This document shows, piece by piece, positions 29,959 through 64,000 of a stretch of DNA of 64,000 nucleotides. The stretch is from Candidatus Saganbacteria bacterium (GTDB lineage: Bacteria > Margulisbacteria > WOR-1 > XYC2-FULL-46-14 > WPAF01). A model generated the notes under the pieces. That model searched no databases. It saw only the letters and a list, made by a program, of their open reading frames with translations, and had not been told where the DNA came from. Each line of letters starts with the position of its first letter. The stretch's first letter is position 1. The translations under genes and the position numbers were made by a program. The stretch is taken from the NCBI GenBank assembly GCA_016223205.1, contig JACRPM010000001.1, positions 61,072 through 125,071 on the forward strand. The letters are read 5' to 3'.

Positions 29959-29959
29959 C

Positions 29960-32128: not shown

Positions 32129-32859
32129 CGACCGAACTGTCTATTGTGCTCCCCTGTTACAACGAAAGCCGGAACCTGCCGATGGTCCTGGATCGTTTGA
32201 GGGCTTTCGCCGGCCGCTACGATTTTGAATTGATCCTGGTCGATAACGGTTCGACCGATGAGACCGCTGCCGTACTACGGGCGCTTTTAGCCAAGTCAGA
32301 GAACCGTTTTGCCCGGAGCGTCAGGATCGAGAGCAATATCGGCTATGGCGATGGGATCATGACTGGGCTTCGAGCGGCGCACGGGCAGGTCCTGGCCTAT
32401 TCGCACGCCGACATCCAGACTCCGCCCGAAGACATATTCAAGGCCTTTCAGATGATCAAGGATAATAATTTGGATATCGACCGGGTTTTGATCAAGGGTT
32501 TGCGGGTCAACCGGCAAAATGACCAGCAGTTTTTGACCAAAGCCCTGGGCAAGATCGCTTCGCTGCTTTTGGGGTATGAGATGGAAGATATCAACGGCCA
32601 GCCCAAATTGTTTTCTCGGGGTTTTCTGGCCGGGCTGAAAGGGGCGCCGACCGACTTTTCCTTTGATGTCTTCGTGATGTATAAAGCGAGGCGGCAGGGG
32701 TTGGCGATCAAGACCTTTCCGGTCGATTTTGGGGCCAGGCTTCATGGGGAATCAAAATGGGCGACGTCTTTAGTCTCGAAATACAGAACGATCTTCGGTT
32801 ATCTGAAAAACATCGTCCGGTTGTCATTAAAGAACATTATGGGCCATAACTATGAATAG
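32122..32859 (+). CDS. GT2, polyprenyl-phosphate sugar synthase (DPM1-like)
   Basis: SIVLPCYNE, VDNGSTDET, NIGYGDGI, HADIQ and RLHGESKW. Confidence 0.8.
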   Translation: MVTTELSIVLPCYNESRNLPMVLDRLRAFAGRYDFELILVDNGSTDETAAVLRALLAKSENRFARSVRIESNIGYGDGIMTGLRAAHGQVLAYSHADIQTPPEDIFKAFQMIKDNNLDIDRVLIKGLRVNRQNDQQFLTKALGKIASLLLGYEMEDINGQPKLFSRGFLAGLKGAPTDFSFDVFVMYKARRQGLAIKTFPVDFGARLHGESKWATSLVSKYRTIFGYLKNIVRLSLKNIMGHNYE

Positions 32860-38814: not shown

Positions 38815-38815
38815 A

Positions 38816-42057: not shown

Positions 42058-43009
42058 TCTTGATCAACTGATCAACTTCTATAAGTTGATGCTGAAGGTC
42101 CGTATTTTTGAAGAGAAAATAGATTGGCTGTTTTCCCGGGGCCTGCTCGGCGGGACGAGCCATATGTGTATCGGGCAGGAGGCGGTGGCGGCGGGTATTT
42201 CGGCTAATTTGAATTTGGACGATTATGTGATCAGTTCTCACCGCGGCCACGGCCACTTGATCGCCAAAGGGGGCGAGGTCCGGAAGATCTTTTCCGAGTT
42301 GATGGGCAAGGTCGACGGTTACTGCCAGGGCAAGGGCGGCACACAGCATCTTTGCGCGAAAGAGATCGGTTTTTATGGGACCAATGGGATCGTCGGCGGC
42401 GGCATTCCGGTCGCCACCGGGATCGCGCTGTCGATAAAGCTGCGCCGGAGCCGGCAGGTCGCGGTTGTCTTCTTCGGCGATGGGGCGACTAACCAGGGGA
42501 CTTTCCATGAATCGCTGAACATGGCTTCGATCTGGGGCCTGCCGATCTTATTCGTTTGCGAGAACAATCTCTACGGCATGTCCGCGCCGGTGAGTAAAAT
42601 GACCAATATAAAAGATCTCGCGCGGCGAGCGGATGCCTACAATATAAAAAGCCATATTGTCGATGGCATGGATGTGGAGGCGGTTTTTGCCCGGTCCGGG
42701 GAAGCGCTCAACTACATCCGGGACTCGCAGAAGCCGTGTTTTATTGAAGCGAAGACCTACCGGCATTGCGGACATTCGAAAAGCGATGCCCGGGTTTACC
42801 GGACCAAAGAGGAAGAAAAATGCTGGCGGGAAAAGGATTGCCTGGACGTTTTAAAAACTCGCTTGATCTCCCTGGGATTTGCGGCGGAGCAAATGGACAA
42901 GATCAAGGCTGAGACGGAACAGGAGATCGAAGCCGCTTGGAAATTAAGCGAAAAAAGCGAAGATACGCCGCTGTCCTTGGGGCTCAAAGGGGTATACAAA
43001 GATGGCTAG
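42044..43009 (+). CDS. ThDP-dependent dehydrogenase E1 alpha subunit (PdhA/AcoA-like)
   Basis: HMCIGQEA, SHRGHGH, GIVGGG, GDGATNQG...CENN and RHCGHS. Confidence 0.92.
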   Translation: MANNNLDQLINFYKLMLKVRIFEEKIDWLFSRGLLGGTSHMCIGQEAVAAGISANLNLDDYVISSHRGHGHLIAKGGEVRKIFSELMGKVDGYCQGKGGTQHLCAKEIGFYGTNGIVGGGIPVATGIALSIKLRRSRQVAVVFFGDGATNQGTFHESLNMASIWGLPILFVCENNLYGMSAPVSKMTNIKDLARRADAYNIKSHIVDGMDVEAVFARSGEALNYIRDSQKPCFIEAKTYRHCGHSKSDARVYRTKEEEKCWREKDCLDVLKTRLISLGFAAEQMDKIKAETEQEIEAAWKLSEKSEDTPLSLGLKGVYKDG

Positions 43010-43988
43010 GCTCATTACTTACCGGGAAGCGATCCGGGAAGCGATCGCCGAAGAAATGAGCGGGAATGACAAGGTCATTTTCCTGGGCGAGGATATCGGC
43101 GCGTATGGAGGAGCGTTCGGCGTGAGCAAAGGCTTGCTGGAACGGTTCGGGGCCGGACGGGTCATTGAGACCCCGATCTCCGAGAACAGCATTGTCGGGG
43201 TGGGTGTGGGCGCCGCCATGGCCGGATTCTGCCCGATCGTGGAGATCATGTTCATGGATTTTATCACCCTGGCGATGGACCAGATAGTTAATCATGCCGC
43301 CAAAATACATTATATTTACAGCGGACAGCTTAATGTCCCGCTGACCGTGCGGGTCCCGGCCGGGGCGGGAAAAGGGTATGGCGCCAGCCACTCGCAAAGT
43401 TTGGACTGCTGGTTCCTGAACGTTCCGGGCTTGAAAGTGGTGGCGCCGTCAAACCCGTACAGCGCCAAAGGCCTTTTGAAAAGCGCGATTAAGGACCCCA
43501 ATCCGGTCATTTTTATTGAAAATAAAATGCTTTATGACTTCAAGCAGGAAGTTCCGGAAGAACCGTATTATTTGGAGATCGGGAAGGCGGAAACGCTGTT
43601 GGCGGGGACCGATGTTTCGCTGATCTCGTACGGGCGGGCCCTGCATCTTTCTTTGGCAGCGGCTAAAATAGCGAAAGAAGCGGGCATTTCCGTTGAATTG
43701 ATCGATCTGGCCACCTTAAAACCGCTGGATACCGGGACCATTATAAATTCCGTTAAGAAGACCGGGAAAGCGGTAATTGTTGAGGAAGGGCATAAAACTT
43801 CCGGCGTGGGAGCCGAGATCGCGGCTTTGATCTCGGAGGAATGTCTGGAGTATATGAACGGGAAAGTGGTCAGGGTCGCGGCGGAAGAGTGTCCGATCCC
43901 TTCAGCGCAAAAACTCGAGGCAGCGATCCTGCCGAGTGTAGAAAAGATCACCGCGGCGATAAAAAAGGCTTGTTTTAGCTATGAATGA
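43002..43988 (+). CDS. ThDP-dependent dehydrogenase E1 beta subunit (PdhB/AcoB-like)
   Basis: GEDIG, ETPISE, EIMFMDF, HSQS and PGLKVVAPS. Confidence 0.92.
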   Translation: MARLITYREAIREAIAEEMSGNDKVIFLGEDIGAYGGAFGVSKGLLERFGAGRVIETPISENSIVGVGVGAAMAGFCPIVEIMFMDFITLAMDQIVNHAAKIHYIYSGQLNVPLTVRVPAGAGKGYGASHSQSLDCWFLNVPGLKVVAPSNPYSAKGLLKSAIKDPNPVIFIENKMLYDFKQEVPEEPYYLEIGKAETLLAGTDVSLISYGRALHLSLAAAKIAKEAGISVELIDLATLKPLDTGTIINSVKKTGKAVIVEEGHKTSGVGAEIAALISEECLEYMNGKVVRVAAEECPIPSAQKLEAAILPSVEKITAAIKKACFSYE

Positions 43989-44720: not shown

Positions 44721-45779
44721 ATGAAAAACAAGACGATAAAGATCGGGAAAAAGACAATTGGGAGCGGGCAGCCCTGCTATTTTATTTCCGAGATCGGCAA
44801 TAATCACGGGGTGGATCTGAAATTGGCGAAGCGATTGATAAAGGCTTCTGCTGAAGCGGGTACGGACGCCGTGAAGTTCCAGACGTTCCGGGCCCTGGAT
44901 ATTGTCAACCCAAACGTGACCGCCAAATCTTGTGCTTCAACTGGTTGGGACGTGTCCGACCGGTTCGATTACTGGTACCAGTTTGTCGAAACTTTAGTGA
45001 TGCCTTATGAGTGGTATGATGAATTGATCGCCTACACCCGGAGCTTGGGAATGGCTTTCATATCAACGCCGGCCAGCCTGGAGGCCGCCCATTTTCTGGC
45101 CAAGAAGAAAGTGGACGCCCTCAAGATCGCTTCCATGGACCTTAACAACATCCCTTTCCTGAAGGAAGTCGATAAGCTCGGTTTGCCGGTGATCCTCTCG
45201 ACCGGCATGGCAACAGCGGAGGAGATCGGCGAGGCTGTCAGTGCTATAAAAAGATCACCCCTGGCTTTGCTCCATTGCGTTTCTAATTATCCGTTAAGAC
45301 CGGAAGACGCAAATTTAATGAACATCAAGATGCTGCAAGACCGGTTTTCTCTCCCGGTCGGGTTTTCCAACCATGCTCTGGGTGATGAGCTTGATATCGT
45401 GGCGGTTGGTTTAGGCGCCGGCATAATTGAAAAACATTTTACGTTCGACCGTAAAGACCCCAGAATCGCCGAACATCATTTTTCCATGCTCCCGGCAGAA
45501 ATGAAAGAAATGGTCGGGAAAGTCAGGCTGATCGAAAAAGCCTTGGGGAATTATCACAGGACCATGACGGAAAGCGAATTGAGAACGAGAGATATTGCCA
45601 GAAGGAGCATTACGACAATAATAGAAGTAAAAAAAGGGGCGGTAATTAAAAAAGATGACCTGGGGTTCATACGGCCCGGCACGGGGATCGAGCCGAAGCA
45701 TATAAAAGAGATCATCGGCAAGCGAGCGCGGAGAACTATAAAAAATTATCAGTTAATAAAATGGGAGGATTTGATTTAA
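44721..45779 (+). CDS. pseI: Nonulosonate synthase (NeuB/PseI family) with SAF domain
   Basis: ISEIGNNHG, VKFQTF, KIASMD, LSTGMA, LHCVSNYP, GFSNH and IEKHFT; co-located with pseB/C/G. Confidence 0.8.
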   Translation: MKNKTIKIGKKTIGSGQPCYFISEIGNNHGVDLKLAKRLIKASAEAGTDAVKFQTFRALDIVNPNVTAKSCASTGWDVSDRFDYWYQFVETLVMPYEWYDELIAYTRSLGMAFISTPASLEAAHFLAKKKVDALKIASMDLNNIPFLKEVDKLGLPVILSTGMATAEEIGEAVSAIKRSPLALLHCVSNYPLRPEDANLMNIKMLQDRFSLPVGFSNHALGDELDIVAVGLGAGIIEKHFTFDRKDPRIAEHHFSMLPAEMKEMVGKVRLIEKALGNYHRTMTESELRTRDIARRSITTIIEVKKGAVIKKDDLGFIRPGTGIEPKHIKEIIGKRARRTIKNYQLIKWEDLI

Positions 45780-48395: not shown

Positions 48396-49125
48396 AAAGA
48401 TACTGGTGATCGCGGCCCATCCCGATGATGAAGTGTTTGGTTGCGGAGCGACGATCGCCAAACACACTAAAGCCGCCGCCGATGTCTTTTTGCTCGTTTT
48501 TGGCGACGGCGTTACCGCCAGAATTTTTCAGTCGGGGGTTTCGAGGGAGAAAGAGCTCAAAACGGCTTCAGCGACAATAGAGAGAAGGCAGCGAGAGCTG
48601 CACCGCGCGGCCGGTATCCTGGGGATCAAACCAGAGAGGATCAAGTATTGTGGTTATCCCGATCAGCGGTTTGACGCGGTTCCGATATTGGATATTATAA
48701 AGGAAATTGAAGCGATAAAAAGTGATTTTGCCCCGGAGATCGTTTATACCCATCACTGGGGGGATTTGAACCGGGACCACCGGGTCGTCTACGAGGCGAC
48801 CGTAACCGCCTTTCGGCCGAAATATGGCAGCAAAACAAGCGCGGAAATACTATGCTATGAAATACCGGGCAATATGGATATTTTACAGCCCTTGTCTGCT
48901 AACCGCTTTAAGCCGGATGTTTTGGTCGATGCTGGCGACACGTTCGACATTAAGATGGAAGCCGTGAAGGCATATGCAAGTGAATTGAATGCGGCCGGGC
49001 CGTTATCGGTTGAAGGGCTGATCGCCCAGGGAAAGAAAAGGGCCGGGAAAACAAAATATAAGATGGTCGAGGCTTTTGTTGGGTGCGCCGCGACCAAAGG
49101 AGGGATTTATGGAAAAACATTTTAG
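48382..49125 (+). CDS. PIG-L/LmbE family de-N-acetylase
   Basis: AHPDDE, DQRFD and THHWGDLNRDH; start 48382. Confidence 0.88.
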   Translation: MICIKKILVIAAHPDDEVFGCGATIAKHTKAAADVFLLVFGDGVTARIFQSGVSREKELKTASATIERRQRELHRAAGILGIKPERIKYCGYPDQRFDAVPILDIIKEIEAIKSDFAPEIVYTHHWGDLNRDHRVVYEATVTAFRPKYGSKTSAEILCYEIPGNMDILQPLSANRFKPDVLVDAGDTFDIKMEAVKAYASELNAAGPLSVEGLIAQGKKRAGKTKYKMVEAFVGCAATKGGIYGKTF

Positions 49126-49786
49126 CCCATCGGTCTTTTTATCCGGGGATTTAGTATATTTAAGAACGCCGGATATTGAAAAAGATGTCATCAGCGGTAA
49201 ATGGCATGCTTGGCTTAACGATAAGGCTACGACCAGGTATGTGCTCCAGGGGATCTACCCGAATACTATCGAAAAACAGATTGAATTTGTGTCATCTGCT
49301 GAAAATGATAAAAGCAAAATGTTGCTTTGCATTATTGATAAGAGCAACAACAAACATATTGGGGTCATCTCATTTAGCGATATTGACCTTTTAAACAGGA
49401 AAGCCGCTATTGCTATCTTGATGGGCGATGATTCTTATCCCCCCGGGGCTCCTTTGGAAGCAATAGCATTAATGATTGAACACGGTTTTGATCGTCTAAA
49501 TCTGAATAAAATATATTCAGCACAAGTTGCCGAGCTTTGTAAATGGTCGAATCTGGCGGAATTGGTTGGCTTTAGGATTGAAGGATACGTCGAATCGGCC
49601 ATGATTAGAAACGGTCGACAGTACGATGCGATTTGTCTTGGTGTGACGGCTGAAAGGTTTTATGCCTTAAAAAGGGAGCGTGGCGGCGACATCCGTTCCA
49701 ACAATATTGAAGAGTTGATAAATAAAAGGCGGAAAGACAATCTAGCCGTTTTAATTAAGGATTATATAGCTAGTTTATATAAATAA
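49109..49786 (+). CDS. GNAT N-acyltransferase (RimJ/RimL-like; candidate PseH-type)
   Basis: WLND, HIGVISF, AIAILMG, GFDRLNLNKI and GFRIEG; start 49109. Confidence 0.78.
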   Translation: MEKHFSPSVFLSGDLVYLRTPDIEKDVISGKWHAWLNDKATTRYVLQGIYPNTIEKQIEFVSSAENDKSKMLLCIIDKSNNKHIGVISFSDIDLLNRKAAIAILMGDDSYPPGAPLEAIALMIEHGFDRLNLNKIYSAQVAELCKWSNLAELVGFRIEGYVESAMIRNGRQYDAICLGVTAERFYALKRERGGDIRSNNIEELINKRRKDNLAVLIKDYIASLYK

Positions 49787-54429: not shown

Positions 54430-56361
54430 ATGAAAGTTTTAATTGGTAAGGGGCAAAGCGATAGGTCAGGTTTGCAGGAGGTTTGCCGGTTCCGGACCGG
54501 TGAGAGCCTTTGCCTGGATGCGAAAAACGCCCAGTTTATTCTCGAGTTATCGGCTGGCGTGAAAATATATTTGTTCGGGGAGGTGTTTTATCATATCAAG
54601 CGAAATGGCTCGATCAAATTGATCGGGGAAGCGGGCGGCGCCTATCTGCGCCGGCTATTCTTAGAAAACGAGCTGACAGAGATCATTCCCACGCTGGAAG
54701 GTCAATATGTCGGGGTACTGGTCGACCAATCTTCAGGCAAGGTTAAATTCTTCAGCGATCGTTACGCCCGTCTGGATTGTTTTTATGCCGCGGACCGGGA
54801 CGGATTCTATCTTTCAACCGAACTTGACTTCATCTTTCAGTGGATCAAGGCGGAATACGACCAGTTGATGCTGGCCAATTTCTTTTCTGTTTACGGTTAC
54901 TATGCTCCCAAAGGGATGACGATCTATTCAAATGTGAAGGAACTGCGGGTGGGAGAAGCCCTTACCCTGCGGGGGTTGACGGCCAGCAGTGAGACCCTTC
55001 CTTTTAAACCCCTGCCGATCGAGGAATACGGCGATAAGGATTTAGAAACTTATTATAAGCTCTTGCGGGAATCAATTGTTGCCCGGGCCAATAAAAAAGG
55101 AAAGGTCTGGGTCTCCAGCTCCAGCGGGTGGGATTCCTCGACTATCTTGGGCGTTCTGGTCAATGAGCTCGGCAGCAAGAACGTCGGCATGATCACGACT
55201 AGCGTTCAATATTCCAAGGCGACAAAAGTGATCAATCAGTTCGAAACCGATAAGGTTCGCAAGATCGGTAAATTCTACGGGATCAAACCGGAACTGGTCG
55301 ACCTTGATTATTCGAAAAAAGGGCCTGCCTTATACGATGGCAAGCTCCTCAATCACTTTAGATCAAGGCATATCTACTCTTTTTCCGCCTATAACGCCAT
55401 GGGGCTTTCCGGCCGATTAAAGCAACTGGGAACGCCCGAAGGGATGATCGTCTTCAATGGGGAAACTTCCGACTCCTTCCATAATTTTGGTTTTTCCCAA
55501 TTTGCGACTTTCTTTCACAGCCAAAAACCCTTTACCGAATACGCCGATAAAATGAATTGTTATTTATATGGCCCTTCATTTTTGAAAAAAGTATTGGACG
55601 GCAGTTATAACAAAGACAAGGTTTTCCAGATCTTTCGGGCAATGGTGGGGGCGGTTGAGTTCGCTTCTGGCTTCAAAACAAGAAAAGAGCTGCTCAACGC
55701 GTGGCTTATGCCGCTGTTCTACGGTTCCCCACGAATACCTTTTGCCCAAACCATCAATAACCCTTTGCTGAACGAAAAAGGCCGGCGGAAGATATATGAC
55801 TATCCTTTTGGCGAATACCTGCCCGAAGCCCTGGAAAATTTATCGGAAAAGAATGTTTATGCCTGGCTGATCTATCTTTATCACAGTTTTCATTCCCAGG
55901 GCTCTACCGTCAATGCTCCCAAACACGCCCTGGAATTTAACGGCCATCGCTGGCGCATGCCTTACAATGATTACCGGTTGATAGGCTTCCTTTCCAAGGC
56001 CCCTGAAAGTTGGGGGCGGGGGTTGGACCTTAATCACACCAAATATCCGCTTAAGTGGGTAGCCCGCAATAAATTGAAATTCCCCTATGAGATACTTGAT
56101 GAGGGGCCGCATTCGTATCTTTACGATGTGATCGAAGGGGTCTCTTTAGGGGCGGAATTATGTTATCGCTCGGGCTGTACCCCCCTGTTTAAAGAAGTAT
56201 TGAGCAGAAGGGAATACCGGCGGATATTGACCGACCGCTATTTTGACCTCAAATATCTGGATAAACTGGTTTCAGATTATCTTGAAGGCCGAGAGGCAAG
56301 GGGGGGGGATTTCAATAACCTCGTTTCTCTAATTGTGCTGTCGGTGACAGGCTGGTATTGA
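54430..56361 (+). CDS. Asparagine-synthetase-related ATP-dependent amide ligase lacking the N-terminal Cys
   Basis: AsnB-like SDRYARLDCFY..FYLSTE and PP-loop SSGWDSS; the N-terminus is MKVLIG, not MCG. Confidence 0.7.
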   Translation: MKVLIGKGQSDRSGLQEVCRFRTGESLCLDAKNAQFILELSAGVKIYLFGEVFYHIKRNGSIKLIGEAGGAYLRRLFLENELTEIIPTLEGQYVGVLVDQSSGKVKFFSDRYARLDCFYAADRDGFYLSTELDFIFQWIKAEYDQLMLANFFSVYGYYAPKGMTIYSNVKELRVGEALTLRGLTASSETLPFKPLPIEEYGDKDLETYYKLLRESIVARANKKGKVWVSSSSGWDSSTILGVLVNELGSKNVGMITTSVQYSKATKVINQFETDKVRKIGKFYGIKPELVDLDYSKKGPALYDGKLLNHFRSRHIYSFSAYNAMGLSGRLKQLGTPEGMIVFNGETSDSFHNFGFSQFATFFHSQKPFTEYADKMNCYLYGPSFLKKVLDGSYNKDKVFQIFRAMVGAVEFASGFKTRKELLNAWLMPLFYGSPRIPFAQTINNPLLNEKGRRKIYDYPFGEYLPEALENLSEKNVYAWLIYLYHSFHSQGSTVNAPKHALEFNGHRWRMPYNDYRLIGFLSKAPESWGRGLDLNHTKYPLKWVARNKLKFPYEILDEGPHSYLYDVIEGVSLGAELCYRSGCTPLFKEVLSRREYRRILTDRYFDLKYLDKLVSDYLEGREARGGDFNNLVSLIVLSVTGWY

Positions 56362-56367: not shown

Positions 56368-58341
56368 ATGAAAAGAACAGATATCTATCAAGAACTCGGG
56401 GTACTTCAGCTTTTCCTATCGGCGGCTGCCGGGAAGAGGCCTTCGTACTTTGAGTTGACGCCGTTCGCGGCACGTTTAATCCGTTTTATGCCGGAGCGTC
56501 TTCGCCCGGACCGGTTCCCCTTTTCGTTTGGGGAAGTTAAGGATGAAAAGGACCACGCCCTTTATCCGTTGATCTTTGGGGATATTAATCTGCTTTGCCG
56601 GGAGATATTCGATAGAGAGACCGAAAAAGCGCCTTTCTTTAAAGAATTGAGCGGGATTTATCCGTCTGATAAGCTCAGGGTCTTCTTTAAGAAAGTGATC
56701 CACAAAGAAATAACCAAACCTGTTATCTATATTAATATTCTTAAATGGGCGAAGGAAGAAGGGGTGTTCCATAGTAAAAACAGCAAATATCTCAGTTCGT
56801 TGCGGGCTTACGGGAAGAAAAAGGGGATAATAGTAGCCGCTAATTATTTTGGCGCCATGGACATATTGCTTGATCTGGCAAAGGCCTTGTTTGCATTTAT
56901 GGTTTTTCCTTTAGCAAAGATTAAAAGATTAAATGTCAGTCGGCGTTGCCGGCAGGAAAAACCGATCATTGCTTCCCCTTATACGGCGAGGGAAATCACG
57001 TTTGACCGTTCGTATCGCAGCGATATTTTCTGGCTGCTGGATGCAACTATCCCTTATGATCAAGTCTTGATCCAGTTTGAGCGCAAAGATGTCCCGGCTA
57101 ATCCGAAAATGGTCAGCCAGTTAGAAGAAAAAGGGATCAAGGTGATAGCTTTATCTCCAAAAGCGAGTAAGGCCGATATCCCAGTGTGGCGTCCGACCTT
57201 TGAATTCTTTAAAACCCTGGGGAAACGCAACTTGATGACGGCAAAGGCGCTGTTTTTGGCCACCTTCAGGTTTGATCTCAAATGGACCGGTTTTACGTTT
57301 GAGATCGTAATGCTGAATAATATGTTCGCTTTTTGGTACGATTATTTCAAAACGCTGAACATAAAAATATATTTCTCGCACACAGATGTGGTGGGGGAAT
57401 ATAATATTGCTTTGCATCTGGCGTTGCGGGAAGCGGGCGGCGTCAGCTTAAGCCATCAATGGTCAAACCTGGAAAATGCTACGCATGCCTATATGGGATC
57501 GTCCGCAGACATATATTTCTCTTTTGGCCCGCGCTACCGGAACAACCTTGTCAATTATTCCGTGGATTCGCTGATCTATTGCGGTTATATCACTGACCAT
57601 GCCTTTGCCCCGGTTAAAGAGAGAAGCGAGAGATTAAGAAATAATTTGAGGGCGAAAGGGGCCAAATTCATCGTTGCCTTCTTCGATGAAAATTCATCCG
57701 ATGATCCGCTTTCGGTGATTACTAATCATAAATCGGCTGATACTTATCGGAAATTCTTTGAGCTGGTACTGTCCGAGCCGTCGATCGGATTGGTCTGCAA
57801 GCCGGGTTATCCCCGGACGCTTCGACGGAGGATAGCGGAAGTATCCGCTCTCTGGGATAAAGCGGTCACCACCGGCCGTTGCGTGTTCCTTGACGACGGA
57901 GACTATATTACTCGCCAGTATCCGACAGAAGCGGCGCAAGCCGCTGATCTTTCCGTGAATATGCTCCTTTCCGGTACGGCGGCGCTGGAAGCTTATCTTT
58001 CCGGCAGTCCGGTCATTTATCTCGACCTGGAAGGATTGTCTTTAGCCGATGAATATAAATATCCCGGTCTGGTTTACGACAACCTTGACCGGCTAGTGCG
58101 CGATATAGTTATTTATTCCCGGGAGGGAGGGCAGGCCGGATTGCGTTCTATTGATGCTCTGATCGACGCAAAAGATCCGTTCCGCGACGGCCGCGCCGCC
58201 GCAAGGATCGGCTCATACCTGAAATGGCTTTTGGAGAAATATAACGCTGGTGCTTCTCCCGAAGCGGCCATTGGATCTGCGGACAAGAATTATCGGGATA
58301 TCTGGGGGAATGACATGGTGGTTAAGGGGTTTATGTCATGA
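56368..58341 (+). CDS. Large GT-B-like surface-polysaccharide protein (putative ulosonic-acid transferase)
   Basis: Locus context; C-terminal CKPG and GTAALEAYLSGSPVIY resemble the GT-B nucleotide-binding lobe. Confidence 0.5.
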   Translation: MKRTDIYQELGVLQLFLSAAAGKRPSYFELTPFAARLIRFMPERLRPDRFPFSFGEVKDEKDHALYPLIFGDINLLCREIFDRETEKAPFFKELSGIYPSDKLRVFFKKVIHKEITKPVIYINILKWAKEEGVFHSKNSKYLSSLRAYGKKKGIIVAANYFGAMDILLDLAKALFAFMVFPLAKIKRLNVSRRCRQEKPIIASPYTAREITFDRSYRSDIFWLLDATIPYDQVLIQFERKDVPANPKMVSQLEEKGIKVIALSPKASKADIPVWRPTFEFFKTLGKRNLMTAKALFLATFRFDLKWTGFTFEIVMLNNMFAFWYDYFKTLNIKIYFSHTDVVGEYNIALHLALREAGGVSLSHQWSNLENATHAYMGSSADIYFSFGPRYRNNLVNYSVDSLIYCGYITDHAFAPVKERSERLRNNLRAKGAKFIVAFFDENSSDDPLSVITNHKSADTYRKFFELVLSEPSIGLVCKPGYPRTLRRRIAEVSALWDKAVTTGRCVFLDDGDYITRQYPTEAAQAADLSVNMLLSGTAALEAYLSGSPVIYLDLEGLSLADEYKYPGLVYDNLDRLVRDIVIYSREGGQAGLRSIDALIDAKDPFRDGRAAARIGSYLKWLLEKYNAGASPEAAIGSADKNYRDIWGNDMVVKGFMS

Positions 58342-58427
58342 GCGGAATATTGGGGAACAGCAACGATCGTGTTTTATCCAAAAATATGGAGAGGGGTGAC
58401 GCTCTTCCGGCGCTCGCTCAAGTATGA
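58338..58427 (+). CDS. 29-aa bridging mini-ORF (possible translational coupler)
   Basis: ATGA overlap with the upstream stop (58338-58341) and with the downstream start (58424-58427). Confidence 0.35.
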   Translation: MSGILGNSNDRVLSKNMERGDALPALAQV

Positions 58428-60307
58428 AAAAGCTCGTTTTTTTGGAATTTATTGATGAATACGAGGCTTTTTGCCGGCAGAGAAAAGAGCAGGGAGAAGC
58501 CCAGGCCGATTTTTCCATTATCGCTTTGGAGCCGAAACTACAGGCTTATCTTAAAAAGCGGGGGGTGGTCTTTGAGACTTCCCTGAAATATTTTAGCAAC
58601 GATTCGCACAAGGCGATGATCTTAAATGCGCAAAAAGCGGTCGTTCATATCAATGAGGCTTTTAAATATTCTGATAAGCTGGGATTGTCAGCGGTCTATT
58701 TGACCGACCTGCTATTTTATGCCCGGTTTTATCATTCTCATTTAATGGGGTTGGTCGAAATAATTGATAATTGCGTGCGCCAGCATGAGGCGGTCGAATT
58801 GTCTGCTGCGGTTTCTGTGTCTTCGTCCGCGAGCCTCATGATTGCGCCGGCCGACCGGAACCTGGGCGAGCTGGTCAAGGCCTATGCCGACAGCCGCTCG
58901 CTGAAGTTCGTCAACATTGTTGCCGATCAAGCGCCGCCGGCGTCGGGCAGTACGCCGGGCGGTTCTCAACGCTGGAGCCGGTTCTTGACCGGCGCTATCA
59001 AATTATACTGTCTGCTTTTTAGGAAAAGGCTGGTTTTGATCCCTGGGAACGGTTACGGCTTCACCGCATTAAAGGCGAAACTGGCCAAGCGCGTTCCCGG
59101 CCTGGTTTTTATTTCTCCTTGTTCGGATAATATCCGTCGGTCACCATTGGCATATCTTAAGCTGTTTGTCGCCGGAGTGATCAATAAACATTTTTGGATC
59201 GAGCTTAACGGTCCCCAGATCGCGGACGGAGAGTTGCGGCGGCAATTAGCCGTTGTTTTTCAGGCGGCGGATGCTTTTGATTACAAAGGGATAACTCTCG
59301 GGCCGCTGGTGGAAAGAAAAGTTGCCAGCGCGCTGGTCCCATATTTTATAGAGCTAGGGGGACGGAGCGCGGCGCTGAAAGAGCTGATTCTGTCTTTGCG
59401 GATAAAGCTGATCATGTCGCCTCTGGCGCGCGGTCTGTGGTCTGCGGCGGGGGAATTGTCCCGCCCGCTCGGTATCAGTTTGCTTTTTGTTTCTCACGGC
59501 GCCCATCCGGTGCCGACCGATGAGATCCACGAGTTGGAACTGCTGCAATTGTGCCGGGGGTTTATGCTCAGCGATTTTACCGATGTCGCTTTGTCAACTC
59601 CGATCCAGGAAGAGCACCTGCGTTATTTCAAGAATAAATACCCTTGGGTCAAAGCCAATCAGGTCAAGACCGGCCCGCTGATCTTTGCCGATCTGAGAGG
59701 GATAAATAAGCTGGACGCCAAACTTAAGCTCGGTCTGCCGGTGTCGGAAACGGTCCTGACACACGCGGTGACCAATAAAAAGCGCGGCGGGGAAAGATTT
59801 TATAATTTGGAGACATTTGACGAATATCTCGACAGTTTGTCGGATCTGATCGGCGTGGTCGATAAAATGCCGCTGACACGCTTGATCGTGCGCGTCCACC
59901 CAGGCTTTGAATTAAGTGATGAAGAATTGAAGGTTTTATTGCCGCCGTCCGAGAAGTTCATTATCAGCCGGCAGGGGCCGTTCGCCGAGGTCCTGGCGGC
60001 GACCGATGTCCTGGTTAGCTATTCGTCGACCGCGTTGGACGAGGCCCTGCTCAATGAGCGTCCGGTGATACTCTTCGATAAATGGGGCCGTTATAATCAT
60101 TTTAGGCTTCCTGTGTATCGGGGAGGGAAGGTCAGCTTGCCTGTCGTGTATGTAAATGAAGGCGCCCATCTGGGGGAGGCGATCGGCGAGTTTAGAGGAA
60201 AGAAGACCGCTTTTAATTATGACCCGTACAAATATGAGGTTGATTATGAAGATAATTTCTATGATTATGTCAGGGCCGCGTTAGGCGGGAAAGGAGCTTT
60301 ATCATGA
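58424..60307 (+). CDS. Large GT-B-like protein, sialyl/Kdo-transferase-like
   Basis: IVRVHPG and DVLVSYSSTALDEALLNERPVI (HP and SS/T motifs of CMP-sugar-using transferases). Confidence 0.55.
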   Translation: MKKLVFLEFIDEYEAFCRQRKEQGEAQADFSIIALEPKLQAYLKKRGVVFETSLKYFSNDSHKAMILNAQKAVVHINEAFKYSDKLGLSAVYLTDLLFYARFYHSHLMGLVEIIDNCVRQHEAVELSAAVSVSSSASLMIAPADRNLGELVKAYADSRSLKFVNIVADQAPPASGSTPGGSQRWSRFLTGAIKLYCLLFRKRLVLIPGNGYGFTALKAKLAKRVPGLVFISPCSDNIRRSPLAYLKLFVAGVINKHFWIELNGPQIADGELRRQLAVVFQAADAFDYKGITLGPLVERKVASALVPYFIELGGRSAALKELILSLRIKLIMSPLARGLWSAAGELSRPLGISLLFVSHGAHPVPTDEIHELELLQLCRGFMLSDFTDVALSTPIQEEHLRYFKNKYPWVKANQVKTGPLIFADLRGINKLDAKLKLGLPVSETVLTHAVTNKKRGGERFYNLETFDEYLDSLSDLIGVVDKMPLTRLIVRVHPGFELSDEELKVLLPPSEKFIISRQGPFAEVLAATDVLVSYSSTALDEALLNERPVILFDKWGRYNHFRLPVYRGGKVSLPVVYVNEGAHLGEAIGEFRGKKTAFNYDPYKYEVDYEDNFYDYVRAALGGKGALS

Positions 60308-60972
60308 AGATCGTAGGTTTTGTTCCGTCACGGTTGAACAGCGAGCGGGTCCCGTCGAAGAATATAAAATTGTTGGGGGGGGTGCCGCTGATCAATTACT
60401 CCCTGCGGGCTTTGAATAAAGTCAAGGCGTTGAATGACCTGGTCGTCTTTGCTTCGGAGCCGAGCATAAAGGATCATATTGAAGCAGACCTGAAGTACAC
60501 TTATCTGGCACGGCCGCAGTCGCTTGATACTCAGACCGCGACGATCCAGGACATTATCGGTGAATTTCTCAAGCTATCCGACGCCGACATTATTGTCCTG
60601 CTTCACATTACCTCTCCCTTCCTGCGGCCGGCGACGATCGCCGAATGCATCGACAAGGTCGTCTCGGGAGAATACGATTCCGCGTTCTCCGCTTATGCCT
60701 TCAAGAAATTTGCCTGGTTCAAGGGCCGGCCGCTCAATTATTCCCTGGACAAGCCGACGCCGCGGACCCAGGACATAGATCCGGTCGTGATCGAACAATC
60801 GTCATTGTATGTCTTTCGGCGGGAGCTTTTTCTGAACAAACGCCGCCGGATCGGAGACAAGCCATTCATTAAGATTATCGACCATTTCGAAGGGCACGAC
60901 ATTGATACGCCGGAGGACTTCGAGATCGCCGAATTGATGGTCAACGCGGGGTTTTTCCAACCACTAAAATGA
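60304..60972 (+). CDS. Acylneuraminate cytidylyltransferase family (NeuA-like)
   Basis: PSRLNSERVPSKNIK, TSPF and DIDTPEDF. Confidence 0.85.
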   Translation: MKIVGFVPSRLNSERVPSKNIKLLGGVPLINYSLRALNKVKALNDLVVFASEPSIKDHIEADLKYTYLARPQSLDTQTATIQDIIGEFLKLSDADIIVLLHITSPFLRPATIAECIDKVVSGEYDSAFSAYAFKKFAWFKGRPLNYSLDKPTPRTQDIDPVVIEQSSLYVFRRELFLNKRRRIGDKPFIKIIDHFEGHDIDTPEDFEIAELMVNAGFFQPLK

Positions 60973-62099
60973 GCAAGATCTTGAGCCAAAAAGAAGTCGT
61001 GTTCGACCGGTCACGGTATCCGCTGCTTATAGGGCGGGGGATCATTAACGAACTGGCCGCTCGGCTGGCGGAACGGACCAGGAACCGCGATGTGCTGATC
61101 GTCTATGACAATTATTTTGAGGCGTCGATCAACGATAAACTGGCCGCCAGCCTGCGCTTGGCCGGTTTCCGCGTCCTGCTCCATCCGTTGGAGGGGGGAA
61201 AGGTCAATAAGAACATCAATGAAGTGCTCAAGATCTACGGACTGCTGGAAAGCCAGGATTTTTCGCGCGATTCTACGCTGGTTGCGGTCGGCGGGGGAGT
61301 GGTCGGCGACCTGGGTGGCTTTGTGGCCAGCACTTATTTGCGCGGAATAAATCTGGTCCATATCCCGACGACGTTGATGGCGATGATCGATAGCAGTCTG
61401 GGCGGCAAAGTGGCCATAAATTTCCGCAAAACGATCAATGCCATTGGCGGCTATTATCACCCGATCATAAATTTGATCGACCTTGATTTTATCGATGCCC
61501 TGCCGCTGCGCGATTACCGGGCTGGGCTGGCCGAGGCGATCAAATGCGCAGTTATTGCCGATGCCGAATATTTCCGGTTTCTGCTGGATAGGGGCGCGGC
61601 GATACTGGAGAAAAGCGAGCCTGACTTGCTGCGGGTGATCGATCGGGCGATCGAGATCAAAATTGATCACGTGAGCGGCGATGTTCATGAGGGGGGCAAA
61701 CGGTTAAAGCTTAATTACGGCCACACGCTCGGTCATGCCGTCGAGAGCTCGACTGTGACCGATGACGGCGAAACCTACCGCCACGGAGAAGGGGTCGCGC
61801 TTGGCATTATGGCCGCCGCCTATATTGCCTGGCGCCATCTAGGACTGAAGGAGCAGGCCTATCAGGCTCAGCGGGAGATCTTTGATCGTTATCGGCTGCC
61901 GGTGGTTGTTGAGGCCGCGAAGATCGGCTTTGAGCGAGCGGCATTGATCGATGAGTGTCTTCGCAACGTTAAGAAGGACAAGAAGCGAAAGGATCACGTC
62001 ATTCGGATGGTCCTGGCCAGCGGGATCGGCCAGAGTGCGATCTATAACGATGTGCCGTTTTCTTTGATCGAAGAAGCCTTTCGCGAAATAGTCAAATAA
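60969..62099 (+). CDS. 3-dehydroquinate-synthase-like sugar-phosphate cyclase
   Basis: GGGVVGDLGGF, PTTLMAMIDSSLGGK, AEAIK, LNYGHTLGH, HGE and DKK. Confidence 0.87.
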   Translation: MSKILSQKEVVFDRSRYPLLIGRGIINELAARLAERTRNRDVLIVYDNYFEASINDKLAASLRLAGFRVLLHPLEGGKVNKNINEVLKIYGLLESQDFSRDSTLVAVGGGVVGDLGGFVASTYLRGINLVHIPTTLMAMIDSSLGGKVAINFRKTINAIGGYYHPIINLIDLDFIDALPLRDYRAGLAEAIKCAVIADAEYFRFLLDRGAAILEKSEPDLLRVIDRAIEIKIDHVSGDVHEGGKRLKLNYGHTLGHAVESSTVTDDGETYRHGEGVALGIMAAAYIAWRHLGLKEQAYQAQREIFDRYRLPVVVEAAKIGFERAALIDECLRNVKKDKKRKDHVIRMVLASGIGQSAIYNDVPFSLIEEAFREIVK

Positions 62100-62110
62100 A
62101 GGAGCGTCAA

Positions 62111-62869
62111 ATGGATAAAGAAATACTTAAGGGGAAGGTTTGTATCATTACCGGGGCAGGGAAGGGGATAGGCCGGGAAACGGCTAAACTTTTTTACCGG
62201 GAGGGAGCCAAGTTGGCCCTGATCTCGCGCGACCAGGCCGACCTGGCCGATTTGAAAAAGGAGGCTTCATTTTCTGATGATCGTGTTTTGACCATGGCCG
62301 GCGATGCCTCTGACGAAAAGACCGTTGTCTCTTATATTAATGGTGTTTTGGCCAAGTTTGGCCGCTGCGATGTCCTGATCAACAATGCCGGAATGCGTTT
62401 CCGCAAGCCGTTCCTGGAGATCGGAACTGAAGAATGGCAACAGGTAATTTCGACCAATTTGGGGAGTGTCTATTTGATGTGCCGCGAAGTCGGTAGGCAG
62501 ATGGTTAAACAAAAGTCCGGCCGGATCGTCAACCTTGCCTCGATCATCGGCACCCTCGGTCTGCCAGACCTGTGCGCCTATGGAGCTTCTAAGGGGGGCA
62601 TTATTTCCCTGACCAAATGCCTGGCGGTTGAATGGGCGCCATATCAGGTCAATGTCAACGCGATCGCCCCAGGGTTTTGCGAGACGTCGTACGCCGAAAA
62701 CTTTAAAAAGAAAACCGAGCTTTACAATATGACAATTGACCGGACGCCGCAAAAGAAGTGGGGCAAGGCCGAGGATATCGCCAATGCCTGCTTGTATCTG
62801 GCTTCGCCGCTCTCCGATTACGTGACCGGCGAGGTCTTGAGCGTTGACGGCGGCTGGAGCGCCTGGTAG
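62111..62869 (+). CDS. SDR oxidoreductase
   Basis: TGAGKGIG, NNAG, YGASKGG and YVTGEVLSVDGG. Confidence 0.88.
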   Translation: MDKEILKGKVCIITGAGKGIGRETAKLFYREGAKLALISRDQADLADLKKEASFSDDRVLTMAGDASDEKTVVSYINGVLAKFGRCDVLINNAGMRFRKPFLEIGTEEWQQVISTNLGSVYLMCREVGRQMVKQKSGRIVNLASIIGTLGLPDLCAYGASKGGIISLTKCLAVEWAPYQVNVNAIAPGFCETSYAENFKKKTELYNMTIDRTPQKKWGKAEDIANACLYLASPLSDYVTGEVLSVDGGWSAW

Positions 62870-64000
62870 TGAGTTGTTTGGCTGGAAACGCAAATAAAAC
62901 AATTTACATCCTTTCGGATGTGAATGCCGTGAGGCAGTTGATCGTCGACAAGGGAGCCGATCATCAAGTCTTAACAACAAATAATGCTGGCGATATTCCT
63001 CTGCCGGAAAAAGAACGTTTTTTAAAGGAATATGTCGATTTGATCGGGACTATCAATTCAACGGAACGAAGCCCGAAATGGTGGAGTTATTGCCTTAACT
63101 CCAAAGACTATGTTAATTCCACGTTTTATGACGAACTATTTGAGACCATTGGTCTCGTTAACAAAATTGATGATTCCGATGCCGAGAACATTGTGGTTGT
63201 GGTGGGATCTCAGCGGGTAGCCGCGCAGATCAAATATTATTGTGAGAAAAGGGATAGTCAGGTCGTAATGTCCGGGGTTAAGGCCGGATCGTATAGCTCA
63301 ATATTTTCTTTGGCAAGGCCTTTGATCTCTTCCCTGTCCTTCTTATGGCAGATATATTATCGGATCGCTGTTTGCGCCCTGTTCCTGCGCGGCAGAATAT
63401 TGTTCGTCCCCGCCCGGCCGGGAGCGAAACGATACGTCATCAGAAGCTGGGCGACGACCAATTCGCTGGTTTCCGCCCCTGACCGGGATCTTTACTTTGG
63501 GTCCCTCCAGAACGATCTGACAGCCCGGGGATTTGATGTCGGCGTGATCGTCGGTGTGCTTGGCGATTATCTCAAGGCTGTTAAAATAATGAAAGCCCAC
63601 GATAAGCCGCTGCCCCAGGAAATATTACTGAGTGTCCTTGATCCGTTGCTGACATTGCTTTCTTGCCGTTTTCGGCCGAGCCGGGTTAATGGTCCGGTGT
63701 ATTTTCGGACGATCGATATCTCACTGCTGTTGAATTCTTGTCTGGCGCTGGAACGGTCGTCCGGACAGGACTTGCATAATATGCTCTATTATCGGATCGG
63801 CAGAAGGTTAGGCCGGCGCTATCAGCCGGAGCTGTGCTCTTTCAGCCATGAAAATTATCCCTGGGAAAAGACTTTTATTCTGGGGTTCAGGTCGGCCGCT
63901 AAGACGTTCCTGATCGGCTACCAGCACAGCGGCCTCTATCGGTCGCTCACGACAGTTCTTTTAAGTAAAAAGGAAAAGGGCCGAGTGCCTTTGCCGGACG
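62869..64000 (+). CDS. Large surface-carbohydrate biosynthesis protein, partial (runs off the right edge); absent from the ORF track
   Basis: Hand translation from GTG 62869 is open to the end: WWSY, DLYFGSL, HENYPWEK, IGYQHS and PLPD, reminiscent of Leptospira LIC13510-like O-antigen proteins. Confidence 0.65.
   Translation, partial: MSCLAGNANKTIYILSDVNAVRQLIVDKGADHQVLTTNNAGDIPLPEKERFLKEYVDLIGTINSTERSPKWWSYCLNSKDYVNSTFYDELFETIGLVNKIDDSDAENIVVVVGSQRVAAQIKYYCEKRDSQVVMSGVKAGSYSSIFSLARPLISSLSFLWQIYYRIAVCALFLRGRILFVPARPGAKRYVIRSWATTNSLVSAPDRDLYFGSLQNDLTARGFDVGVIVGVLGDYLKAVKIMKAHDKPLPQEILLSVLDPLLTLLSCRFRPSRVNGPVYFRTIDISLLLNSCLALERSSGQDLHNMLYYRIGRRLGRRYQPELCSFSHENYPWEKTFILGFRSAAKTFLIGYQHSGLYRSLTTVLLSKKEKGRVPLPD

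Follow-up and report, generated by a model that had tools for sequence, protein, structure and literature searches.

A dehydroquinate synthase-like cyclase, a ketoreductase and a cytidylyltransferase form a conserved cassette whose probable product is a CMP-activated cyclic hydroxy acid not described before

At the downstream end of the window, by which we mean the whole 64,000-nucleotide stretch of the Candidatus Saganbacteria contig analyzed here, the genes of CTP3_B, DHQSL and SDR2 stand among those of three large proteins, BIG4, BIG5 and BIG6 (Table 1). The stop codon of BIG5 overlaps the start of CTP3_B, the CTP3_B stop and the DHQSL start overlap as ATGA, as the first-pass annotation of this DNA had noticed for the cyclase and cytidylyltransferase genes, and AGGAG precedes the ATG of SDR2; the cytidylyltransferase, cyclase and SDR genes are, as judged from the DNA, predicted to be translationally coupled. 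The locus in the window also encodes NeuB and a set of acyl-building proteins (two FabH-like, one ATP-grasp and one GNAT), and the 12 kb of contig that follow the window add two more NeuB-family and two more CTP_transf_3 genes. The argument of the first-pass annotation that the locus holds two CMP-transferases against a single NeuB-type synthase is correct inside the 64 kb and fails beyond it, and because the locus continues past the window end, the count is a window-edge artefact.

Table 1. Genes at the downstream end of the window, numbered from its first nucleotide.
Gene	Product	Position	Strand	Evidence
BIG4	657 aa, no assigned family, candidate transferase	56368..58341	+	ORF
BIG5	627 aa, GT-B fold (predicted)	58424..60307	+	ORF; AlphaFold2 and structure comparison
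CTP3_B	NeuA/PseF-like cytidylyltransferase, 222 aa	60304..60972	+	Pfam CTP_transf_3, 1.5e-19
DHQSL	DHQS-type sugar-phosphate cyclase paralogue, 376 aa	60969..62099	+	Pfam DHQ_synthase 3.1e-37 and DHQS_C 1.5e-32
SDR2	Classical SDR ketoreductase, 252 aa	62111..62869	+	Pfam adh_short_C2, 6.9e-65
BIG6	927 aa, start only in window	62869..64000, continues past window end	+	Full length from contig (L003:941-3724)

DHQSL shares fold and domains with AroB, the dehydroquinate synthase (DHQS) of the shikimate pathway, and when it was aligned with HMMER to Aspergillus nidulans DHQS (1dqs), all 13 catalytic and binding residues that the first-pass annotation had picked out by eye proved identical (R130=R125, K152=K147, N162=N157, E194=E189, K197=K192, K250=K231, E260=E241, R264=R245, N268=N249, H271=H252, H275=H256, H287=H272 and K356=K338, with the DHQS residue given first). 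These 13 residues, which bind zinc, phosphate and the carboxylate, are invariant across 14 members of the DHQSL family. Such conservation is informative, since other AroB-like proteins do depart from it: in each of two other genomes, a third AroB-like paralogue is changed at K250 (to H), R264, N268 (to D) and K356, and K250 and R264 are the residues that bind the carboxylate. Thirteen DHQS entries of the PDB score 123.6-178 bits against DHQSL, all above ValA (119.7), the 2-deoxy-scyllo-inosose synthase (DOIS) BtrC (117.1) and DDGS (85.4); by bit scores, then, DHQSL groups with DHQS and not with EEVS, DOIS or DDGS, and its closeness to DHQS makes a hydroxy acid of the quinate type a likelier product than a neutral carbasugar. 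N249, H256, D238 and R245 of DHQSL are of the DHQS type. The sedoheptulose-7-phosphate cyclases reportedly differ from DHQS at the N268 and H275 sites and in an arginine loop, according to the structural work on ValA.

For all this likeness, DHQSL differs from the AroB of its own genome. A separate housekeeping aroB, which the first-pass annotation had suggested looking for, was found beside aroK on the same contig, 72 kb from the cassette (344.7 bits against the aroB model), so that DHQSL is not the genome's only aroB; one DAHP synthase-family gene and a chorismate synthase gene lie elsewhere in the genome. The DHQSL gene, situated between those of a cytidylyltransferase and an SDR, is also outside any aro context: the Pfam scans, which covered the larger forward-strand ORFs of the window and one reverse-strand ORF, found no further aro gene, as had been stated. 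DHQSL and the housekeeping AroB are 36% identical, and the DHQSL clade stands apart from 47 other AroB sequences with an SH-aLRT support of 99, is present in at least ten phyla, and has a tree that conflicts with taxonomy.

The gene order is nearly fixed. Among 33 related loci that hold the whole cyclase gene, a homolog of SDR2 follows the cyclase in 32, the remaining one (L008) having an aldo-keto reductase instead, and a CTP_transf_3 gene flanks the cyclase, again in 32; the orthologue of CTP3_B itself lies immediately upstream in 27, and 13 loci have two cytidylyltransferases. No further gene family is common to most of the 33 loci, and in none of them is the cyclase beside aro genes. Cyclase, carbonyl reductase and cytidylyltransferase thus form a conserved unit across phyla. 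Orthologues of the cyclase and the cytidylyltransferase co-occur in the same three of 41 related genomes, most of which have a housekeeping-type aroB match, and such a distribution marks the cassette as an accessory module. One Oleiphilaceae locus has the cassette on its own, with unrelated genes around it, and the cultivable Gilvimarinus japonicus 12-2 is among the carriers. In two Zambryskibacteria genomes it contains the sole aroB-like and the sole CTP_transf_3 gene found, while neither a NeuB nor a KdsA-type synthase was found there, and the CMP-transferase of the cassette has no other obvious substrate in them. Among longer proteins searched for the cyclase no fusion turned up, which is weak evidence against the pathway proposed below, and we found no description of such a cassette in the literature.

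The activating enzyme belongs to the family that handles ulosonic acids. CTP3_B scores 76.1 bits against the PseF model TIGR03584, below the cut-off of 205.7, and among solved structures it comes closest to PpNeuA (59 bits) and mouse CMP-Neu5Ac synthetase (58 bits). It shares with them R..S...P.KNIK, TSP, PR.QD and DID, the nucleotide- and sugar-acid-binding motifs of the CTP_transf_3 fold, which align with the mouse enzyme over residues 6-218. Its constant partners are the cyclase and the SDR, not a NeuB/PseI-type synthase. Where a cytidylyltransferase gene lies downstream in the cassettes, all five products tested exceed the cut-off of the KdsB subfamily, and this KdsB-like enzyme is a second copy in three genomes and the sole copy in two. 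In three metagenomic proteins a CTP3_B-like domain is fused to a stretch that faintly matches LuxE acyl-protein synthetase. The nearest solved relatives of SDR2 are FabG, gluconate 5-dehydrogenase and 2-deoxy-gluconate 3-dehydrogenase.

Of the three flanking proteins of more than 600 residues that the first-pass annotation had described as transferase-like, the description suits BIG5 well, BIG6 in part and BIG4 not demonstrably. The AlphaFold2 model of BIG5 (pLDDT 87.9, pTM 0.89) finds GT-B glycosyltransferases as its top Foldseek matches, such as MshA with an E value of 6.6e-10, and its residues 199-625 superpose (VIA-align) on many GT-B enzymes with Z scores of 12-15, among them MGD1 (15.4), TagF (14.4) and TarL (13.0). 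In this it resembles the TagF, KpsC-KpsS (Capsule_synth) and LIC12162-type transferases, families that its ESM Atlas neighbors carry; it is unlike them in that its first 200 residues are without a match and it reaches the cut-off of no family model, the hits within its family being weak (Glyphos_transf in two of nine members, DUF6716 in seven). Its gene is directly upstream of the cytidylyltransferase gene in ten related loci, and BIG5 is the best candidate transferase for the product of the cassette. BIG6 combines a weakly GT-like N-terminal part (DUF6716, 9e-4; the surface-carbohydrate family TIGR04326, 37 bits at residues 321-519) with Radical_SAM (6.8e-17) and SPASM (1.1e-10) domains at residues 658-922; in three related loci (L004, L005 and L014) each part has a gene of its own. 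BIG4, which has homologs in 12 related loci, matches no Pfam or NCBIfam model (no credible Pfam match in any of 11 family members) and no solved structure in a profile search, and hhalign gives it a probability of 4% against the BIG5 family; some of its ESM Atlas neighbors carry Glyphos_transf, Capsule_synth or LIC12162, a lead from a language model only.

The likely product of the cassette is a cyclic hydroxy acid, activated with CMP and not described before; what the enzymes act on, what they yield and in which order, the CMP activation of this product and the transferase are inferred as follows. DHQSL would convert DAHP, supplied by the first reaction of the host cell's shikimate pathway, into 3-dehydroquinate, and because the cyclization eliminates phosphate, no phosphatase is needed. 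SDR2 would then act on the only ketone of this compound, yielding quinate or an epimer of it, and the reduction would also prevent the loss of the 1-hydroxyl that is seen in the dehydroquinase reaction. The NeuA-like enzyme, or its KdsB-like paralogue in other phyla, would esterify CMP to the tertiary 1-hydroxyl beside the carboxylate, a position that is the carbocyclic counterpart of the anomeric center of Kdo or sialic acid, and the adjacent GT-B protein would place the unit on a glycan. The sequence of cyclization, reduction and CMP activation had been proposed by the first-pass annotation, and its support now comes from the synteny of the cassette, the counting of CMP-transferases against NeuB having lost its force. 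The retained DHQS residues, the genome's own shikimate pathway, the KdsB-like partners in other genomes, the accessory distribution, the translational coupling, the GT-B neighbor and the existence of a second cassette type, of the TIGR04425 kind, also speak for the proposal. It is our tentative reading that the three genes are a copy of a mobile cassette, which could well feed an unusual acidic unit into the surface glycan via a quinate-type CMP ester.

Two known schemes are close to this pathway. The routes to CMP-Kdo and the CMP-nonulosonates (KdsA/KdsC/KdsB, NeuB/NeuA and PseI/PseF) likewise couple a CTP_transf_3 enzyme to a builder of an alpha-hydroxy or alpha-keto acid sugar, and the cassette shares with them its KdsB-subfamily or NeuA-like partners and its setting in a surface-glycan locus; unlike them, it has a cyclase and a ketoreductase in place of an aldolase-type synthase (KdsA or NeuB), lacks a phosphatase, and has an expected product that is carbocyclic. 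In C7-cyclitol pathways, sedoheptulose 7-phosphate is cyclized by an EEVS such as ValA, GDP or another NDP is placed on the cyclitol phosphate by a nucleotidyltransferase such as VldB, and a pseudo-glycosyltransferase such as VldE acts at an allylic leaving position, the products being secondary metabolites. A DHQS-superfamily cyclase, nucleotide activation of a cyclitol and, as proposed here, GT-B-type transfer also follow one another in the cassette, but its cyclase is of the DHQS type, its activating enzyme is of the CMP-ulosonate family, and its setting is a surface-glycan locus.

Several points argue against the proposal. A glycosyl donor normally needs a ring oxygen, which a carbocycle does not have, and nothing of the kind would therefore stabilize the departure of CMP from the tertiary carbon; the known pseudo-glycosyltransferases use GDP-valienol, which is allylic. 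No DAHP source was found in three small genomes that carry the cassette (G001, G002 and G005): searches there for DAHP synthase of either type, chorismate synthase and DHDPS-type pyruvate aldolase found none, nor was KDPG aldolase found in G001 and G002, the two in which it was sought; since the assemblies of these three come from metagenomes and are incomplete, the absence is not proven. The two cytidylyltransferases of 13 loci are not explained by one product, and other ulosonic-acid modules in the locus could claim the cytidylyltransferase.

The last point leads to the alternative that survives best, which we nevertheless consider improbable, namely that cyclase and reductase together produce a substituent derived from quinate or dehydroquinate, attached as an acyl or ether group to a nonulosonic acid of the locus, and that the adjacent cytidylyltransferase activates this nonulosonic acid instead of a cyclitol. 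The NeuB and acyl-building genes of the window, the further NeuB modules downstream and the LuxE-like fusions would all suit such a role. NeuB was not found, however, in three of the five cassette-bearing genomes searched (both Zambryskibacteria and Luteolibacter), where the cassette keeps a cytidylyltransferase of its own, and the genes around the Oleiphilaceae cassette are unrelated.

The difficulty of donor chemistry would disappear if the product were a true ulosonic acid. The DHQS-like enzyme might serve only as a phosphate-eliminating oxidoreductase, with the reductase capturing the 6-keto (enol-pyranose) intermediate ahead of the aldol reaction, and the resulting 3,7-dideoxy-heptulosonic acid would be activated by the KdsB- or NeuA-like enzymes and be usable by ordinary CMP-sugar transferases. 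This would account for both kinds of cytidylyltransferase and for a carbonyl reductase, SDR or AKR, that is always there. We regard it as unlikely because the whole DHQS set is kept, including the residues that line the cyclization site, and because in DHQS the ring closes on the enzyme or more quickly than the intermediate leaves it; moreover, we know of no precedent for a route of this kind. Equally unlikely is that the cyclase uses another universal sugar phosphate, for instance sedoheptulose 7-phosphate, and that the resulting neutral C7 cyclitol goes on to be reduced and activated with a nucleotide. The three carriers with no visible route to DAHP could be so explained, and a related cassette type, considered below, has its own GmhA-like sedoheptulose-7-phosphate isomerase and an IolG-like dehydrogenase; on the other side stand the retention of R264, K250 and the rest of the set that paralogues elsewhere have altered, the much greater distance of DHQSL from ValA, DOIS and DDGS than from DHQS, and the known substrates of CTP_transf_3 enzymes, which are 2-ulosonic acids. 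That DHQSL is nothing more than a spare aroB isozyme of aromatic amino acid synthesis, in a glycan locus by chance, is very hard to credit: its intact active site and its score against TIGR01357 (300.3-300.5 bits, just under the cut-off of 305, which family members in G001-G004 pass with 310.6-321.2) would allow it, but the separate clade with its discordant tree, the fixed gene order, the confinement to three of 41 relatives that mostly have a housekeeping-type aroB match, and the occurrence of the family in genomes in which a search for chorismate synthase found none are all against it.

If the quinate-type CMP ester is accepted, a broader and more doubtful picture can be drawn, in which bacteria of at least ten phyla, the ultra-small Zambryskibacteria among them, display on their surfaces or flagellins a carbocyclic look-alike of Kdo or sialic acid, a 1-carboxy-cyclitol of the quinate type made by a recruited dehydroquinate synthase and carried as a CMP ester; were this true, the chemistry of the installing transferase must work without a ring oxygen. 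In the same picture, sedoheptulose 7-phosphate might be the starting compound from which a sister cassette, of the TIGR04425 type, forms a relative with more hydroxyl groups. The model is named [quoted passage not shown], and in two related genomes its cassette, within a Wzx-containing locus, combines the cyclase with an SDR, an IolG-like dehydrogenase and a CTP_transf_3-cupin fusion. Like DHQSL, this cyclase has SDR and CTP_transf_3 partners and retains the DHQS residues but for E260, which is D (12 of 13), whereas the two differ in sequence (28% identity; DHQSL scores 204.8 bits against the TIGR04425 model, whose cut-off is 400) and the sister cassette differs in having its own GmhA-like isomerase, 2-hydroxyacid dehydrogenase and IolG-like dehydrogenase and a cytidylyltransferase fused to a cupin.

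From 54.4 kb to the end of the window, all sizeable ORFs lie on the plus strand and are tightly packed. Three of them, coding for the cytidylyltransferase CTP3_B, the cyclase DHQSL and the ketoreductase SDR2, form the cassette discussed here, with the large proteins BIG3 to BIG6 as neighbors. The stop of BIG5 overlaps the start of CTP3_B in the motif ATGA, as does the stop of CTP3_B with the start of DHQSL, and the SDR2 start is preceded by AGGAG, while neither promoter-like (20 versus 13.9 ± 4) nor terminator-like matches (21 versus 16.6 ± 4) were above shuffled expectation. The cassette genes therefore look like a single translationally coupled transcription unit.

Coordinates of the cassette, its neighbors and other features mentioned in the text (plain numbers, window; L003, contig continuing past the window end; other L-numbers, loci from genome scans; G-numbers, genomes)
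Feature	Coordinates	Strand	Length	Description
BIG3	54430-56361	+	643 aa	Large neighbor protein
BIG4	56368-58341	+	657 aa	Large neighbor protein
BIG5	58424-60307	+	627 aa	Large neighbor protein
CTP3_B	60304-60972	+	222 aa	NeuA-like cytidylyltransferase, Pfam CTP_transf_3
DHQSL	60969-62099	+	376 aa	DHQS-like cyclase, Pfam DHQ_synthase + DHQS_C
SDR2	62111-62869	+	252 aa	Ketoreductase, Pfam adh_short_C2
BIG6	62869 onward; full gene, L003:941-3724	+	927 aa in full	Large neighbor protein
Other CTP_transf_3 gene	38744-39637
NeuB gene	44721-45779
Lipoyl fusion and E1 subunits	40921-43988			Nonulosonate module
Module of the 633-aa protein	25408-32128
634-aa protein	32852-34756		634 aa
1014-aa protein	3538-6582		1014 aa
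Divergent NeuB	L003:3721-4731			NeuB family
Second aroB-like gene	Contig 48696-49667
AroB-like paralogue	L086:3147-4298			In G003
AroB-like paralogue	L087:2948-4093			In G004
Second cassette	G041:C52 (L084:3178-9724)	-
Second cassette	G025:C3 (L085:2750-8143)

The first-pass annotation listed 13 catalytic residues of DHQS (Aspergillus nidulans numbering) as kept in DHQSL, and all 13 are indeed identical when DHQSL is aligned by HMMER with A. nidulans DHQS (1dqs) and invariant across the aligned family members from different phyla (n = 14). Against solved structures, DHQSL matches thirteen DHQS entries (123.6-178 bits) better than EEVS ValA (119.7), DOIS BtrC (117.1) and a DDGS (85.4). It reaches 300.5 bits with the aroB equivalog model, under its cut-off of 305, and 204.8 bits with the AroB-related TIGR04425 model (cut-off 400). 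In the alignment, AroB-like paralogues at loci L086 and L087 of two other genomes show K250 replaced by H, N268 by D and K356 by F, and R264 replaced by A or S with the Arg shifted one position. Given these changes, the keeping of the whole set by DHQSL is informative. Its sequence makes DHQSL a DHQS-type enzyme, with a DAHP-like 2-keto-3-deoxy acid 7-phosphate as its expected ligand. The paralogues, each the third AroB-like gene of its genome with about 200 bits for aroB, probably act as sugar-phosphate cyclases with a different specificity. In the part of PMC8262930 consulted, DHQS is named only as a BLAST match to AraM, and no residue list telling DHQS from EEVS was found in the part of PMC4426668 consulted.

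The genome itself (1.57 Mb, 91.9% complete) holds two aroB-like genes, whose products are 36% identical. The second, scoring 344.7 bits, lies 72 kb upstream of DHQSL with shikimate kinase, tyrS, panB and ispF as neighbors, and one DAHP synthase-family gene and chorismate synthase are also present. A separate housekeeping aroB thus exists, and the case that the first-pass annotation had named as fatal to its proposal, DHQSL being the only aroB of the genome, does not apply. The DAHP_synth_1 family gave a single match each (350-aa frame) in this genome and in a WOR-1 relative, and no separate KdsA-sized gene was seen, at 91.9% completeness of the genome.

The best 120 clusters of DHQSL relatives in the protein database are 51-90% identical to it and 349-385 aa long, and those with names carry the plain label “3-dehydroquinate synthase”. 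A scan with one genome per species yielded 80 loci, where identity to DHQSL is 49-83% for L004-L035, 43% for L036, 40% for L037 and at most 39% for the rest. A maximum-likelihood tree built on 81 sequences has one branch that splits 34 family members from 47 other AroB sequences (SH-aLRT 99, stem 0.68). Branching within the family conflicts with taxonomy; Zambryskibacteria are nested in Omnitrophota, and an alphaproteobacterium is grouped with Nitrospiraceae and Ignavibacteriae. Three of the 41 related genomes contain the cyclase (at least 80% identity), each with CTP3_B (at least 89%) next to it, and the four genomes of the same taxonomic family have neither. By these sequence comparisons, the cassette is conserved and mobile.

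Gene order was counted in the 33 of 34 loci L004-L037 that contain a whole cyclase gene, L035 being cut by a contig end. An SDR2 homologue follows the cyclase on the same strand in 32 of the 33, and an aldo-keto reductase takes its place in one (L008). Dehydroquinate has exactly one ketone, and the exchange of one reductase type for another points to carbonyl reduction as the conserved step; the nearest solved relatives of SDR2 are generic, with no substrate named. A CTP3_B-like gene lies directly upstream of the cyclase in 27/33 loci, an additional CTP_transf_3 gene lies downstream of the SDR in 18/33, and at least one flanking cytidylyltransferase is found in 32/33. All five downstream cytidylyltransferases tested are above the KdsB subfamily cut-off (227-281 bits versus 193). 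Clustering of all neighboring ORFs gave only four widespread families, namely the cyclase (32 loci), the SDR (30), CTP3_B (28) and the KdsB-like protein (17), and no aldolase or synthase common to the loci. In Margulisiibacteriota, Saganbacteria, Omnitrophota, Nitrospiraceae and others, the cassette comes after a BIG5 homologue in large Wzx-type glycan loci. It stands with a TPR protein alone amid unrelated genes in an Oleiphilaceae genome. In a Legionellales assembly it comes right after fliD and the gene for a 727-aa flagellin, and in two Zambryskibacteria its neighbors are a Wzm/Wzt ABC exporter, GDP-mannose dehydratase and methyltransferases.

Activation of a cyclitol was originally argued from the presence of two CMP-transferases against one NeuB. 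That count is correct inside the window only, because the next 12 kb of the contig add two NeuB genes, one divergent and one standard, and another two CTP_transf_3 genes. The conclusion still stands because of the synteny and the minimal loci, not because of gene counting. In Gilvimarinus, Oleiphilaceae and Luteolibacter, the KdsB-like gene of the cassette is a second copy, with a higher-scoring one elsewhere in the genome, and no CTP_transf_3 gene besides it was found in the two Zambryskibacteria. Searches for NeuB gave nothing in these two genomes or in Luteolibacter. The best argument for action on the product of the cyclase and reductase is the occurrence, in these two Zambryskibacteria, of a cytidylyltransferase for which no ulosonic-acid synthase was found. 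Nor did the two Zambryskibacteria or the Legionellales assembly yield any aroB-like gene besides the cassette cyclase.

With the gene identities, the conserved active site and the linkage observed, we infer every chemical step of the following route. The cyclase would turn DAHP into 3-dehydroquinate, the SDR would reduce it to quinate or an epimer, the cytidylyltransferase would make a CMP ester on the tertiary 1-hydroxyl, and the GT-B neighbor BIG5 would transfer the unit. The 1-hydroxyl beside the carboxylate is the carbocyclic counterpart of the anomeric center of Kdo or sialic acid, and the recruitment of a NeuA-like or KdsB-like enzyme fits because of this equivalence. In dehydroquinate, the 1-hydroxyl lies beta to the enolisable position and leaves when dehydroquinase acts, and therefore reduction before activation is chemically sensible. 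The logic resembles that of CMP-Kdo or CMP-nonulosonate supply, but here the aldolase-type synthase would be replaced by a recruited dehydroquinate synthase. All cassette parts are members of known families, and no description of the cassette or of such a replacement was found in the full-text literature searched. In our judgement, DHQSL is very probably a functional DHQS-type enzyme for glycan, not aromatic, synthesis, and the full pathway from DAHP through a CMP-cyclitol to the glycan is put forward tentatively.

The main difficulty for the pathway is the source of DAHP in the two Zambryskibacteria and the Legionellales assembly. DAHP_synth_1 is found in 7 of the 10 cassette-bearing genomes and was not found in these three, where searches for type II DAHP synthase, chorismate synthase and DHDPS-type aldolases also gave no match; KDPG aldolase was searched in the two Zambryskibacteria and not found there. 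No other source of DAHP came out of these aldolase searches or of the one for NeuB. The assemblies are 0.5, 0.7 and 1.9 Mb in size, and thus absence is not proven. The main weakness besides DAHP supply is the lack, in a carbocycle, of a ring oxygen to help CMP leave, and we know of no precedent for transfer from a CMP-carbocycle donor. Three alternatives are therefore kept. One possibility, which we consider unlikely, is that the product of the cyclase and reductase is a substituent of a nonulosonic acid; NeuB genes do occur in and just beyond the window, and the Zambryskibacteria loci lie in genomes where none was found. Another is that the cyclase uses another substrate, which might ease the DAHP problem and seems very unlikely beside the conserved residue set. 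A true 3,7-dideoxy-ulosonic acid as the product would suit a KdsB-like enzyme and seems equally unlikely.

If the cassette works as proposed, CMP-cyclitol formation would provide an undescribed bacterial glycan building block and tie the entry step of the shikimate pathway to the cell surface. A plain 3-dehydroquinate synthase annotation masks such a pathway and may falsely imply aromatic biosynthesis in reduced genomes, for example those of Zambryskibacteria. A CMP-activated carbocycle, if true, would be a mechanistic puzzle for the transferase, and glycosidases that depend on the ring oxygen might fail to cleave the carbocyclic residue. The cassette is present in the complete genome of a named strain, Gilvimarinus japonicus 12-2, which makes the idea directly testable.

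A different AroB-related gene (TIGR04425, 394.8 bits versus the cut-off of 400) exists in two related genomes. Its product is 28% identical to DHQSL and keeps 12 of the 13 DHQS residues, with E260 changed to D. It belongs to a second cassette, together with a GmhA-like SIS isomerase, a 2-hydroxyacid dehydrogenase, an SDR, an IolG-like GFO/IDH/MocA dehydrogenase and a CTP_transf_3-cupin fusion, near Wzx and no-Pfam proteins of 649-667 aa. This cassette might lead from sedoheptulose 7-phosphate to a CMP-activated carboxy-cyclitol, and a second form of the combination of DHQS-superfamily cyclase, reductase and CMP-transferase strengthens the general reading.

The placement of the cassette between large GT-B proteins, as first described, is borne out for BIG5, one of three flanking proteins. 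The BIG5 model, built from nine homologues (pLDDT 87.9, pTM 0.89), has GT-B glycosyltransferases as its top Foldseek matches (MshA, E 6.6e-10), and an independent aligner gave Z scores of 12-15 for residues 199-625 to many GT-B enzymes, including TagF (14.4) and TarL (13.0). Weak Pfam matches in the BIG5 family, DUF6716 in 7/9 members and Glyphos_transf in 2/9, point in the same direction as the fold; no CMP- or CDP-dependent subfamily was singled out by fold searches with the model. Within the window, the large neighbor proteins themselves have no Pfam match, and BIG5 and BIG4 family profiles hit nothing credible among solved structures. BIG4 has no family or structure match, with Glyphos_transf, Capsule_synth or LIC12162 carried by its language-model neighbors only. 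BIG6 is a weakly GT-like part fused to a radical SAM/SPASM domain, and its counterparts in L004, L005 and L014 are two genes (556-586 aa and 332-337 aa). A search for longer proteins containing the cyclase found none, which is weak evidence. In three metagenomic proteins of 558-578 aa (P0123-P0125), a CTP3_B-like domain, 46% identical, is C-terminal to a region of about 345 aa with a faint match to LuxE acyl-protein synthetase in one of the three; this fusion hints that the carboxylate of the acid may be further activated.

Several other modules lie in or near the locus. The 1014-aa protein has sigma-70 regions 2-4 in its last 230 residues only, and its long N-terminal part has no Pfam match. 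After the divergent NeuB beyond the window end (Pfam NeuB, 98 bits; NeuB equivalog, 112.6 versus the cut-off of 399.65) come a methyltransferase, a B12-binding radical SAM enzyme and one more cytidylyltransferase; together they are possibly another unusual ulosonic acid module. In the nonulosonate module of the window, a 378-aa protein that joins a lipoyl domain to a NeuD/PglD-type hexapeptide acyltransferase precedes pyruvate-dehydrogenase-like E1 alpha and beta subunits, which suggests that a 2-oxo-acid-derived acyl group is passed by the lipoyl arm to an amino sugar. A 633-aa no-Pfam protein is followed by genes for a zinc alcohol dehydrogenase, a ribulose-phosphate 3-epimerase, a xylose-isomerase-like TIM barrel and two nucleotidyltransferases, an arrangement that resembles a TarJ/TarI-like CDP-ribitol module. 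In BLAST among the large proteins, only this protein and the 634-aa protein are related to each other, at 28% identity.
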